A stretch of DNA of 38,769 nt from IMG/VR virus record IMGVR_UViG_2778261204_000005, positions 1 to 38,769 of that record; one strand, written 5' to 3'. Shown here one piece after another: positions 1,690 through 37,761 of this stretch. The position numbers were made by a program, and so were the translations under genes. Positions within the stretch are counted from its first letter, which is position 1, and each line of letters starts with the position of its first letter. The stretch comes from a virus. Its lineage: Duplodnaviria; Heunggongvirae; Uroviricota; Caudoviricetes. The notes beneath the pieces were generated by a model. It did no database searches. It was not told the DNA's origin and was given only the letters and a program-made list of their open reading frames with translations.

Positions 1690-1704
1690 TGGTGTCCCCT
1701 GCAG
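1690..1704. repeat. attL core, direct repeat of the last 15 nt of tRNA-Arg (tggtgtcccctgcag)
   Basis: Exact 15-bp match to 37687..37701; position computed from torI stop codon. Confidence 0.75.
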
Positions 1705-1777
1705 ACATCGACTTGAGGCGGCAGGGGATTGATTGGAATGGTGTTTTTTAGATGTGAGAAATATTTTACCCGCTATT

Positions 1778-1978
1778 TTACCCATTGGCGCGGCTTAAGA
1801 GCTTATTTTTGAATTCACAATGGTCACGATATAACCATCTTGCTCGACCGTGGATAACTTTGGCTTTAGGCAGGTCGCCGGACTTAATCCGGTCGTAGAT
1901 GAAGGTTTTACCAAAGCCAGTATCAGCCATGATGAATTTCAAATCAACCAGTGAATCAGGTTGTAGTTCGTGTTGCAT
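1778..1978 (-). CDS. torI: excisionase / recombination directionality factor, TorI (AlpA/Xis family)
   Basis: 66-aa ORF recognised as TorI of the KplE1 prophage; sits at the attL end. Confidence 0.85.
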   Translation of the reverse strand: MQHELQPDSLVDLKFIMADTGFGKTFIYDRIKSGDLPKAKVIHGRARWLYRDHCEFKNKLLSRANG

Positions 1979-1997
1979 GAGTGCTATCTCCGAATAG

Positions 1998-2013
1998 GGA
2001 ATCGAACCTGCAA
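1998..2013 (-). repeat. second tRNA-Arg-derived fragment (ggaatcgaacctgcaa, T-arm segment) inside the prophage, just upstream of torI
   Basis: 16-nt identity to the tRNA segment immediately 5' of the attL core portion. Confidence 0.55.
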
Positions 2014-2020
2014 ATCAGGC

Positions 2021-2043
2021 AATAAAAAACCGCCATCAGGCGG
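2021..2043 (-). terminator. rho-independent terminator (CCGCC-ATCA-GGCGG plus U-run on minus strand)
   Basis: GC hairpin followed by TTTTTTATT on the minus strand, between orf103 and torI. Confidence 0.6.
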
Positions 2044-2086
2044 CTTGGTGTTCTTTCAGTTCTTCAATTCGAATATCGGTTATGTC

Positions 2087-33586: not shown

Positions 33587-33707
33587 CCTTGATGCCTCAC
33601 CAGTTGGGTGGAATGGCATCGTAACCTACTGGATAAATACTCAATAGTACCATTTCGGTATGCAATCACATCATGGTTGCATCATATCATTCGTCTGGAG
33701 CAATGAA

Positions 33708-35924
33708 ATGTCAGATATCACCGCCAATGTTGTGGTCAGCATGCCTTCGCAACTCTTCACTATGGCTCGTTCTTTTAAAGCCGTAGCCAATGGCAAAATT
33801 TATATCGGTAAAATTGACACTGACCCGGTAAATCCTGAAAACCAGATTCAGGTTTATGTGGAAAACGAAGACGGCTCTCACGTTCCTGTTTCGCAACCAA
33901 TCATCATTAACGCTGCTGGTTACCCTGTATATAATGGACAGATTACCAAGTTCGTAACTGAGCAAGGCCATTCTATGGCTGTTTATGATGCGTATGGGGC
34001 GCAGCAGTTTTATTTCCCTAATGTGCTGAAGTATGACCCTGATCAGTTCAGTCAGCAATTAGCTTCATTTGACCCTCCAGGAACAAACCTGATTGGTACC
34101 AAGGGCGGTGTTAATCTCACGCAATACCTTGATCGTGTATTCATGTTTATCGACGATCTGCCTGGCGTAGATAAGACGGGCGTTCTTGATAGCTCTGCAG
34201 CGCTAAACACCGCCATCACCACCTACAGCGGCGTGGGTGTGGAGTTTATTGGCAATCCATCCAGTACGTATCTCCTTACCGGCACCGTACAATGCATTGG
34301 AGTCAGTAATATCACGCTGAACTTCAATGGCGCGAAGATAATGGATAACGTCCAGGGTTTTATCCCAACTTCTGGTAACCGCGCAAACCACACTTTTGTA
34401 GTTTACAACGCTAAAAAAATTCGTATCACAAACTTTGTTTATGATGTAGCCCCCACCCGCGCCGACGCCACGTTAAGCAACCCGTCCGCACCGTCAACGG
34501 TAATGCTTTGGGTGGGGGGGCAATACCTTGGCAGTGCAATGACAAGTGATGTTGAAATAGATCGCATCTACAACGTGGAAAATAAGGGGCTCAATAACGG
34601 GTTCGTTATCTGCGGGATGGGTGAGCTCGACGGCATCCACGTACATGACTGCCTGATAAAAGGTGGCGCGTGGAAATTTGGTTGTAACTTCGAATACGGT
34701 CTTGCACCTGTAGACCCAGCAACTAATTCAACACTAACTAACGGCCTTCACCCGTACAATATCTACGTAGAGCGATTTAACGTTGAGAATGTTCCTACTT
34801 GCGACGGTTGGTGGCGTACAGCATCTTGTTATAATGCTAAGTTCATAAACTGCACCGCGTATAACACACGCTCTCCGATTTATGTCTATTCGGGGGATAG
34901 GGGGATAACACGATACTCGCAGAACGTAACATTTGAAAACGTAAAGACTAAATATAGTGATGATGTCACATACACCAATGCCAGTGTACAGGTTATTATC
35001 ACGGATAAAGATGGCTCTACGGGGGACACGCTGCCGTCATGGTCAAACTTCGACCATACGTTTATGTTTATAAACTGTGAAATCGGCTCCACTAGAGGAG
35101 CAAACTCCAGTTCATATCGTGTATTCGGCAACATGGGTAAGGTGCATGTCATAGGGGGTATTGTAGAGAACTCCTACTTTGGGGCGCACTGTCAACCATC
35201 GCTCAATCCGACATTCCTGTCTGATGGGGCTATTATTTTCGAAGGAGTAGTATTCAAAAATTGCTTCCAGTTCCTACGCATGGGCGGGGTAAAAGGCTGG
35301 CGTGTCGAAAATTGTACATTTAAACGACATTTATGGGGTTCCACTAGCGCGGCGCAAGTAGACCCAGCCGTATTTTTCAACGGTACAACTGGTCTTCTTA
35401 GGGGTAATACCTGGAACGCACTATCAACTGGTAGTGGGGCGACATGGTATCTTAATTGCCAATCTAGTACCATTCGCATGCGGGATAATGACTTCACGTG
35501 TCCGTCTGTTTATAACTTCCCGGTTATATGGTCGTCTGTGCTGCCGGTGTTAATCGGTAATGGTAACTTGTCCAATACCACATACCTTATTAGCCCCGAT
35601 GTTAACTCCCCGGCCATCTACGGTGAACCTTGTCCGTCCAAAACACTGGAGTCGATAACCGGGTCCGCAATTAACTTCAATATATCAAGTATTTGGACCG
35701 CTAGCGGGACTAAGACCATTAACTCCATCACCGGCGGCAAGCCAGGAGATAAAGTTATCATAAACCCGACGACGGGAGCGGCAAACGTCACATTTGAGTT
35801 TGGTACGGTCACCGGTGAAAACCGCATAGTTCCTCGTACCGTAGCCACCGAGGTAAAAACAGGCACGGGATGGTCAAAAACATTTATCAAGATGTCAGGA
35901 GCACAAGGATGGTGGGAAGTGTAG
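33708..35924 (+). CDS. tailspike protein: P22-type N-terminal head-binding domain fused to a distinct beta-helix receptor-binding domain
   Basis: [47 protein letters not shown] matches P22 gp9 N-terminus; remainder is G/N/T-rich; GGAG RBS. Confidence 0.85.
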
Positions 35925-36367: not shown

Positions 36368-37525
36368 TCACTCTACCTTCCCATCAAGACAGTCTGCCCA
36401 CCACTGCATCATTTCTCTGCGTTTATCGAGATACTGAGCATGGTTGTAAATCCCGCGCACAGATCCGCCGTTGGCATGTGCCAGTTGCACTTCAATAGCA
36501 TCAGCAGGCCATTCGTGCTCGTTCATAATTGTGCTGAATTCATGCCTGAATCCGTGACCGCTTTCCAGACCCTCATAGCCGATTTGTTTGATCACAAGCA
36601 GCACCGCGTTCTCGCAGATCGGCTTCTTCTTATCGTTGCGCCCGGCAAAAACAAACTCTGATACTGGTTTGGTGATTGAGCTTAGCGTAGTGAGAAGTTC
36701 AACCACCTGGTCTGACATCGGGACCACATGAATTTTGCGTCCCTTCATCACACTGGCGTCAATGGTGATAATCCTGTTTTCAAAATCGACGTTCTTCCAT
36801 AGCATGGAACGAAGCTCTTTTGTTCTGAGGGCTGTGTAGCGTAAAACTTTGGTCGCAATGAGCGATACGATGCTTCCTGAAAATGTTGCCAGTGCTTTGT
36901 TGAATGCCGGGATCTGGTCTGCAGGAAGAAACGGGAAGTTCTTCTTGCGGTATCCCTTCATGGCGTCAGCAAGGTCAGGTGCCGGGTTATATTTAGCCCT
37001 ACCAGTAACAATAGCGTAACGGAAAACCTCGCCGCATCTTCTGCGTGCTTTGTTGGCTCGCTCCATTGCGCCGCGATCTTCAAATCTGCGGATTACTTCC
37101 AGCAGTTGCATCGGCTCAATATCCTGAATTTCAAGACCGCCGATGATGGGTAAAATGTCGTCATCAAACATTTTGGCAAGTTCAGTTGCATAGCCTACTG
37201 ACCAGACTTGCTTCTTGTGCTCGTACCATTCCTTGTAAATCGCACTAAATGAATTGTTGTTAGACGAAGCCTTTTTCGCCTTTACCGGATCGATGCCAAC
37301 CGAGATGTCTTTCCTCGCAGTCCATGCCTTATCCCTTGCTTCCTGCAAAGTCATAAGCGGATATTTTCCGACAGTCAGGATTTTCTCCTTACCGTCAATC
37401 TTGTAGCGAAGCTGCCATACCTTTTTCCCTGACACAGGGACATAAAGGTACAGGCCATTACCATCGAGAAGGCGGTATGGTTTTTCTTTCGGCTTTGCTG
37501 CTTCAATCTGCTTAACGGTGAGCAT
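36368..37525 (-). CDS. intS: tyrosine integrase, IntS (KplE1/CPS-53-type)
   Basis: Catalytic C-terminal region (HGFRHEF, HANGGSVRGIY); start set at ATG (MLTVKQIEAAKPKEKPYRL) to give the 385-aa length recalled for K-12 IntS; track ORF extends to 37561 from a GTG. Confidence 0.9.
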   Translation of the reverse strand: MLTVKQIEAAKPKEKPYRLLDGNGLYLYVPVSGKKVWQLRYKIDGKEKILTVGKYPLMTLQEARDKAWTARKDISVGIDPVKAKKASSNNNSFSAIYKEWYEHKKQVWSVGYATELAKMFDDDILPIIGGLEIQDIEPMQLLEVIRRFEDRGAMERANKARRRCGEVFRYAIVTGRAKYNPAPDLADAMKGYRKKNFPFLPADQIPAFNKALATFSGSIVSLIATKVLRYTALRTKELRSMLWKNVDFENRIITIDASVMKGRKIHVVPMSDQVVELLTTLSSITKPVSEFVFAGRNDKKKPICENAVLLVIKQIGYEGLESGHGFRHEFSTIMNEHEWPADAIEVQLAHANGGSVRGIYNHAQYLDKRREMMQWWADCLDGKVE

Positions 37526-37686
37526 GGGTAAAAATCCGGTGGGTAAAATTATTTTATCCACTTTTTACCCGTCATGGAGTGCGGCTGTCAACGATCTGAC
37601 GCGAACCATGACGAACTGTGAATCTACGGGAGGCTTGATATCCAGGGGATTTTGCGGACTGGTACGGATGGGAGCGAACTGATAAA

Positions 37687-37761
37687 TGGTGTCCCCTGCA
37701 GGAATCGAACCTGCAATTAGCCCTTAGGAGGGGCTCGTTATATCCATTTAACTAAGAGGAC
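37687..37761 (-). tRNA. argW: tRNA-Arg (anticodon CCU), argW-type; its 3' end is attR
   Basis: 75-nt cloverleaf read on minus strand: acceptor stem GTCCTCT/AGGGGAC, anticodon loop CT-CCT-AA, T-arm GGTTCGATTCC, 3' ACCA. Confidence 0.9.

Follow-up and report, generated by a model that had tools for sequence, protein, structure and literature searches.

The leader of torI, the excisionase gene of a prophage inserted at argW, contains an 11-nt box that copies the T-loop of the target tRNA and that recurs upstream of divergent xis genes in enterobacterial relatives. We tentatively interpret this box as an accessory cis-regulatory site in the DNA that would let TorI, or possibly IntS, feed back on excisionase expression, a reading to which we assign a probability of about 0.45. 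The box is not part of the recombination site proper. Excision control in this phage family is thought to rest on excisionase expression, and torI is reportedly controlled by Rho (said to be work of Menouni et al. in PNAS in 2013). The evidence for the whole finding is sequence conservation.

A P22-like prophage with an argW-specific IntS-TorI module

The window, i.e. the whole stretch of 38,769 nt that was analyzed, is a P22-like prophage at argW carrying the IntS-TorI recombination module of KplE1, HK620, and Sf6. This assignment follows from the empty site, the integrase, the tailspike, the 97% identity of positions 1690-2450 to Sf6, Kapi1, and IME10, and the sequence of TorI, which is 100% identical to HkaC of HK620, gp18 of Sf6, and TorI itself. 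At the empty site of another E. coli (L346), the same left flank is directly followed by tRNA-Arg and yfdC. We aligned this locus with both junctions of the window, which allowed attB to be reconstructed and placed the junctions at a 15-nt core. A 16-nt duplicated core, CTGCAGGGGACACCAT, was expected, of which 15 nt are duplicated here, the 16th base being C at position 1689 and A at position 37686. The transporter encoded in the left flank (positions 1-1248), a 415-aa MFS oligosaccharide transporter, presumably resembles the sucrose permease CscB, and the empty site L346 shows the same type of flank. Since dsdC/dsdX are found beside the corresponding prophage end in K-12 (L347), the argW-adjacent island is a different one in this strain.

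The features of the module, which is already known, are all found in the window (Table 1). [quoted passage not shown] In the Sf6 and HK620 records, the order is int-attP-xis, i.e. attP lies between int and xis. According to PMC2951348, the five mapped TorI sites are located in the intS/tRNA-side arm and were mapped by mutating the pentamer GTTCG to CAAGC. The PintS promoter was mapped in this int-side arm and is repressed by TorI and IntS through sites located there, a TAAA-containing arm-type motif is described, and PtorI is termed 'non-characterized' (PMC2951348). The two GGGTAAAA repeats at the end of torI are kept in relatives and lie within the 135-bp torI-side substrate used for in vitro excision, as described in PMC3509656.

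Table 1. Coordinates, strand, and basis of assignment of the features discussed in the text.
Feature	Position	Strand	Basis
Core copy, torI-side junction	1690-1704		Exact duplicate of 37687-37701; empty site L346
Phage core-proximal half-site AAGTCGATGT (C-type), partial T-loop look-alike	1705-1714	minus	
GCAGGGG, inverted partner of CCCCTGC (1696-1702, in the core)	1721-1727		Sequence
Two GGGTAAAA repeats overlapping the torI stop codon; putative IntS arm-type sites, by analogy	1765-1783	minus	Sequence
torI (xis), recombination directionality factor, 66 aa	1778-1978	minus	ORF
Shine-Dalgarno GGAG of torI, 9 nt before ATG	1988-1991	minus	Conserved column in alignment A2
Conserved box GTTCGATTCCC (G53, T-loop, and C61-C62 of argW); contains GTTCG	1997-2007	minus	
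16-mer, read on the minus strand as TTGCAGGTTCGATTCC (tRNA positions 46-61)	1998-2013	minus	Exact-match count
Intrinsic terminator of the upstream early-left gene, directly before the box; module edge (2021-2028) within or near it	2027-2046	minus	
Tailspike with P22 head-binding domain	33660-35924		
Integrase, IntS type, tyrosine	36368-37525	minus	Pfam Arm-DNA-bind_3, Phage_int_M, Phage_integrase
Int-side arm with five TorI-type pentamers	37592-37679	minus	Sequence; 2+3 block layout as in PMC2951348
Pentamers GATCG, GTTCG, GTTCG, GTCCG, GTTCG	37592-37596, 37602-37606, 37612-37616, 37655-37659, 37675-37679		
argW, tRNA-Arg(CCU; anticodon CCT in ARAGORN)	37687-37761	minus	ARAGORN, sole tRNA found
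argW core; genuine T-arm 16-mer	37687-37701; 37701-37716	minus	Exact-match counts and ARAGORN

tRNA-derived sequences at the torI end

Two strings of the left junction region are duplicated at argW, and the position of the tRNA-Arg gene predicted by ARAGORN places both of them in the 3' part of the tRNA. The 15-mer TGGTGTCCCCTGCAG occurs exactly twice in the window (1690-1704 and 37687-37701), where 0.07 matches are expected by chance, and the 16-mer GGAATCGAACCTGCAA also occurs exactly twice (1998-2013 and 37701-37716), with a chance expectation of 0.01 matches. The presence of two tRNA-Arg 3' pieces at this junction, proposed in the initial annotation of the sequence, is confirmed by these counts, which also support a tRNA origin of the 16-mer over a chance match. 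The two pieces had been described as consecutive; they do adjoin in the tRNA, of which they jointly cover the last 30 nt, but they are not strictly consecutive, G37701 being common to both. The gap between them, estimated at ~290 bp, is exactly 293 bp (1705-1997) and indeed contains torI, the ATG of which is 20 nt from the end of the 16-mer located upstream.

The core copy is the displaced original 3' end of argW, with bacterial DNA to its left. This junction had been labeled attL, but in the KplE1 literature (PMC2951348) attL designates the intS/tRNA junction and attR the torI junction, so that attR is the appropriate name. A degenerate tRNA match had also been reported beside each of the two pieces. 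This is correct for the core copy, where atcga (1707-1711) matches the T-loop and relatives have TTnGAT, but not for the inner 16-mer. The similarity of the sequence between the 16-mer and the torI ATG to the remaining tRNA 3' end, TGCAGGGGACACCA, is at chance level (shuffle p = 0.24), the same comparison in nine relatives revealed no detectable remnant (shuffle p = 0.24-0.92), and on the other side of the 16-mer the sequence enters the terminator without evident tRNA match. We also considered a decayed full tRNA 3' end after the box, in which GGAGAT would resemble GGGGAC, and rejected it, as the similarity is only at chance level.

The free phages Sf6 and HK620 contain an identical TTGCAGGTTCGATTCCCTATTCGGAGATAGCACTCATG before their excisionase gene, and the 16-mer is the same in Sf6 (L001, positions 2808-2823) and in HK620. 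The 16-mer is therefore not a junction scar of this chromosome: a scar should be present in the lysogen chromosome and missing from free phages, and its identity should continue to the tRNA 3' end, which is not what is observed. The idea of a remnant of an earlier integration, or of a pseudo-att site, in the host chromosome is not supported for the same reason, the same sequence being at the same place in free genomes. Absence of the 16-mer from the attP of related phages, which the initial annotation had named as a refuting observation, is not what we find, the 16-mer being present there. The 16-mer is thus shown to be a fixed phage-borne component of the argW-specific IntS/TorI module. The torI leader region is found in 1550 of the 5426 complete E. 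coli genomes (about 29%).

Within this leader, which is short, the 16-mer sits between the intrinsic terminator on one side and the torI ribosome-binding site on the other. Homology to KplE1 of K-12, which shares the argW module left of 2021-2028, stops at position 2028 of the window, and homology to Stx phages (933W L0063 region) starts at position 2021 and extends to the right with 97.7% identity over 2021-2450. Given this sharp mosaic junction, the 16-mer lies 8-15 nt inside the edge of a mosaic int-attP-xis module. In the Sf6 record, the stretch is labeled as part of the boundary sequence bsq2 (Casjens and Clark).

A conserved T-loop box in xis leaders

We gathered relatives by tblastn of TorI against phage genomes, by Xis-profile scans of bacterial genomes, and by searching viral contigs for Xis, starting from four divergent Xis sequences, which gave 222 loci representing 113 distinct leader contexts from about 10 enterobacterial genera. 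The box GTTCGATT(C/T)CC, or GTTCGATTCC in short form, is present in 83/113 distinct leaders, 3-6 nt before GGAG, the exception being Serratia L016 with a distance of 12 nt. The conserved 11-mer corresponds to G53, seven T-loop bases, and C61-C62 of tRNA-Arg(CCU). It is carried by the Erwinia phages Midgardsormr38 and phiEt88, by the Salmonella phages Emek and g341c, by prophages of Serratia, Citrobacter, Enterobacter, Pantoea, and Edwardsiella, and by E. coli and Shigella elements. The box is nearly constant across carriers whose Xis proteins are only 36-88% identical to TorI. At least 8 leader types have unrelated sequences in the 12 nt preceding the box and in the spacer that follows it, and the columns of the box in alignment A2 (41 sequences) show complete or at least 90% conservation, with variable sequence in the 6 nt before the box and in the 5-nt spacer after it. 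Conservation of the box columns between varying flanks shows, at the level of the alignment, that the box itself is under purifying selection.

Additional pieces of the T-stem are found according to the lineage: TTGCAGG on the 5' side in E. coli, with CAGG being widespread, CCTG on the 3' side in Serratia and Pantoea, and ACAGG...CCTGT in Edwardsiella. As different lineages retain different pieces of the stem, these sequences point to a complete ancestral T-arm behind the box. The 16-mer of the E. coli type exceeds the widely shared part by only 3 nt (TTG).

Tandem duplications of the box are found in three independent lineages, the period being 16 nt in L003/L216/L217, 13 nt in L213, and 15 nt in L014. 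The box has also been lost by deletion or has degraded on several occasions (L018; L187-L197; L121, L135, L204, L188), the clearest case being a clean 25-nt deletion in L187-L197 that joins GCCTG to GAGAT, and it is absent in L004 and L005 despite their GTTCG arms. Repeated loss or decay, and absence from lineages with GTTCG arms, indicate that the box is dispensable; in terms of its conservation, it is a selected but accessory element.

Additional copies of the box in the rest of the prophage are not above chance, and no relatives with another target tRNA were recovered, nearly all readable cores being of the argW type TGCAGGGGAC(A/G)CCA. For the common T-loop GGTTCGAATCC in viral contigs, 72 of the at least 80 matches listed are genuine tRNA genes, and none of the matches listed precedes an xis-like ORF. 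The Pseudomonas AlpA-type relatives (F116 group) were discarded as a comparison, since their layout differs, with xis and int being convergent.

A few observations concern the history of individual leaders. A change of GTTCG to GTTAG in the box is seen in L069, L121, L135, and L204, which belong to three different Xis groups, and further changes in the box often follow. The terminator-box-SD leaders of L165/L169 and L015/L017 are nearly identical, and the xis alleles that follow them share only about 50% identity, which indicates a recombination breakpoint at the xis start codon. Two short contigs, L015 and L029, show a typical enterobacterial argW-type xis leader and core, and the taxon labels of their MAGs ('Actinomycetes' and 'Parachlamydiaceae', respectively) are probably due to mis-binning or contamination.

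The box is of the bacterial type

The box could derive from either of two T-loop-like sequences, the argW T-arm or the core-proximal half-site of the phage. The latter has the consensus aTTnGrTGTm before TGCAGGGG (89 distinct relatives), and GT is invariant in 89/89 of these half-sites at the positions where the tRNA and the box read TC. As the box has TC, it copies the bacterial T-loop arm of attB and does not duplicate the phage core region, and its bacterial (B-arm) type is shown by this sequence comparison. We infer that it goes back to an argW T-arm fragment that an ancestor of the whole module had captured. In many lineages, xis and the P arm are flanked on both sides by a T-loop motif, namely the box and TTCGATGT, respectively, and one may speculate that such an arrangement is consistent with ancient recombination at the T-loop.

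The half-site of most relatives avoids the TorI pentamer, with A for G at position 1 and often A for C at position 4. The invariant GT and the avoidance of the pentamer may define how far strand exchange extends to the left, or may keep TorI off attP. In the same region, an inverted repeat, CCCCTGC...GCAGGGG, with an 18-nt spacer, spans the core and the phage P arm. Its two halves change together in Rouxiella L021 (CCCCTACA / TGTAGGGG) and in Edwardsiella L022 (TCCCTGCA / TGCAGGGA), which suggests that they function as paired sites, perhaps of the IntS core type but unusually spaced.

Possible functions of the box

A regulatory contact of TorI or IntS outside att is our leading hypothesis because the box contains the published TorI pentamer GTTCG. 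In this view, the box would be bound as DNA by a recombination protein for which the T-loop side of attB/attL is already a target, and the bound protein would feed back on the production of the excisionase. The likeliest binder would be TorI/Xis, through GTTCG, the alternative being the core-binding domain of IntS. The pentamer of the box (2003-2007, minus strand) is in the same strand orientation as the five arm sites, and the tandem duplications would suit a protein-binding site.

Several observations argue against recognition by TorI alone. The box is invariant over 10-11 nt, i.e. 5-6 nt past the pentamer, and the TorI arm sites are degenerate where the box is constant (GTTCG, GATCG, GTCCG, and GTTCT in Emek-type arms). 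Since the mapped TorI sites are degenerate pentamers, TorI recognition alone leaves the conservation of ATT(C/T)CC unexplained. In addition, phiEt88 retains the box though its int-side arm repeats are GTWAC-like and not GTTCG. Such observations would agree with recognition that depends on the constant attB sequence, for instance by the IntS core-binding domain. Nevertheless, an IntS site would be expected to resemble the phage half-site, whose characteristic GT is missing from the box.

A more elaborate version of the operator hypothesis, to which we give rather low odds, is that the box mimics the attB half and that a T-loop reader (the IntS core-binding domain and/or TorI) would titrate or repress the synthesis of the excisionase, which would couple excision to the occupancy of the recombination proteins. 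The operator would then have arisen from captured target-site DNA, a route that may be general to int-attP-xis elements integrating in tRNA genes.

GTTCG is found at two other places of interest. The T-loop of argW itself contains this pentamer (37706-37710), 31 bp or about three helical turns from the TorI site I1 (37675-37679) and in the same orientation, and the tRNA side of attL/attB could be an unrecognized sixth TorI site. A second GTTCG is present near the box, in codons 3-5 of torI (1966-1970, plus strand), inverted relative to that at 2003-2007; the two pentamers, 32 nt apart, bracket the ribosome-binding site and the start codon of torI. Such bracketing pentamers are also found in many Emek-type leaders (CGCGAACTT), though not in all groups.

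The box might instead be a relic, an ancient tRNA fragment persisting without function in a linker used for homologous int-attP-xis exchange, which we find unlikely. Its location fits, as the stretch is annotated as boundary sequence in Sf6, the mosaic break is 8-15 nt away, and the near-identical leaders preceding divergent xis alleles (L165/L169 and L015/L017) reveal exchange at the start codon; the dispensability of the box in several lineages is also expected of a relic. But the 11-mer is identical across at least 8 leader types with unrelated flanks, and hitch-hiking in a linker would have preserved the flanks too. Moreover, homologous recombination requires as a rule more than 11-16 bp, so that the conserved stretch is short for such exchange, and the accumulation of several more changes after one change in the box (L121, L135, L204) is typical of released constraint. 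An element acting in the 5' UTR of the torI RNA, be it an SD-masking hairpin, a processing site, or a T-loop mimic for a host RNA-binding factor, seems quite unlikely. In the hairpin model, AUUCC pairs with GGAGAU and GGUU with AACC, and this topology is the minimum-free-energy fold of 9/14 representative leaders, with standard pairs in 79% of the cells compared to 30-58% in slid controls. The arrangement of a conserved block, a variable spacer of variable length, and a conserved SD block, together with the tightly constrained distance between box and SD, is also consistent with an RNA element. However, the folding z-scores are mostly between -1.5 and +0.7 (-0.82 for the leader of the window), covariation is no greater than in shuffles, and the native box closes the ribosome-binding site no better than 60 shuffled boxes per leader (mean z = -0.15 for 56 leaders; z = -0.81 for the opening energy in the leader type of the window). 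The CG positions that the model leaves unpaired are invariant, and AAACC, the partner in the outer helix, is missing in the E. coli type. A hairpin masking the SD or the AUG was rejected on the weak z-scores, the lack of covariation, and the comparison with shuffled boxes. No known Rfam family was recognized, the best match being STnc130 with 24.3 bits for a gathering score of 55. This sub-threshold match (1928-2055, plus strand) is antisense to the torI start and leader, and its alignment is mainly driven by the bidirectional terminator hairpin.

Two further explanations start from existing annotations and from the location of the box. A 'phage integration' promoter and a cII-binding site are annotated over this sequence in the HK620 record, and the Sf6 record mentions 'pI; possible integrase expression promoter', but we regard a CII/C1-activated pI promoter for integrase expression as very unlikely. 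The consensus for lambda CII is TTGC-N6-TTGC, whereas the spacing here is TTGC-N5-TTGC, and the second TTGC is limited to the E. coli type, other lineages having TTCC or another sequence and yet keeping the box. A sigma-70 scan of positions 1600-2500 gave no promoter, and the N6 repeat astride a -35 element with a -10 hexamer, as in a CII-dependent pI, is not found. From such a promoter, xis would be transcribed as well, contrary to what integration requires, and the intS promoter has been mapped in the other arm (PMC2951348). More generally, we looked for a promoter at the box, or for an int-side-arm promoter reading into argW that would yield an RNA complementary to the box, and found none. 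That the recombination site includes the box as a working element, or that the box is a secondary or pseudo-att site for alternative excision or integration, appears extremely improbable, even if it is the attB segment adjoining the core, in the same orientation, and if the box of Serratia L016 is still a perfect T-arm palindrome (CAGG-TTCGATT-CCTG) shaped like a T-loop crossover core. Excision proceeds in vitro with the 135-bp torI-side substrate (PMC3509656), whose inner primer maps to 1782-1801 of the window, 196 bp short of the 16-mer, so that the box lies outside the minimal recombination substrate. As this substrate stops short of the box and the intS/tRNA arm carries the mapped TorI sites (PMC2951348), the box is not required for recombination in vitro, and the earlier suggestion that the 16-mer relates to TorI/IntS binding in the attL arm is not supported in that form. 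Furthermore, no core-like sequence is found beside the box, the reconstructed empty site places the junction at the 15-nt core only, and recombination at the box would be expected to break argW.

An 11-nt conserved element that immediately precedes torI and copies the T-loop of the target tRNA is a concrete target for mutagenesis, and a cheap one. If the box is an operator, target-site DNA can be recruited as a regulatory site, and this would help explain the stability of a prophage module present in ~30% of complete E. coli genomes. If its mutation has no phenotype, the finding is that of an ancient tRNA fragment at a mosaic boundary.

Comparison with known systems

At the level of the module, we observe no difference between this prophage and KplE1 (CPS-53), HK620, Sf6, and Kapi1, with which it shares the core CTGCAGGGGACACCA, the identical TorI, the location of int at one end of the prophage and of the RDF gene at the other, attP being flanked by int and xis, and the five GTTCG-type sites with the GGGTAAAA arm repeats (PMC2951348, PMC8787464). 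The prophage is an ordinary member of this group. The lambda pI/CII int promoter, the label of which appears in the HK620 and Sf6 records, differs from the sequence found here by the N5 spacing, a repeat that is not kept with the box, and the lack of a -10/-35 match.

Displaced tRNA 3' fragments occur at the distal ends of prophages and islands, as exemplified by the pseudo-tRNA ptwF at CP4-6, and the core copy at 1690-1704 is exactly such a fragment. The inner 16-mer differs from this class in that it is off the junction, inside phage DNA, and present in free phages, and in that it corresponds to the T-arm and not to the recombined 3' end.

With regard to regulation, P4 Vis, P2 Cox, and the AlpA family are RDFs that also act as transcription regulators, i.e. 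small winged-helix proteins that bind short repeats and control the promoters of recombination genes. We know of no RDF operator that copies the T-loop of the target tRNA. In the literature covered by a limited search, and in the portions of the sources available, we found no mention of the leader box being identical to tRNA sequence, of its conservation across genera, or of its B-arm character. The closest parallel is integrase autoregulation via att sites that overlap a promoter (Panis et al. 2010, PMC2951348), in which the sites of recombination proteins double as operators. Compared to that system, the candidate operator described here would lie outside the functional att site and upstream of the RDF gene, and would derive from the bacterial instead of the phage arm.
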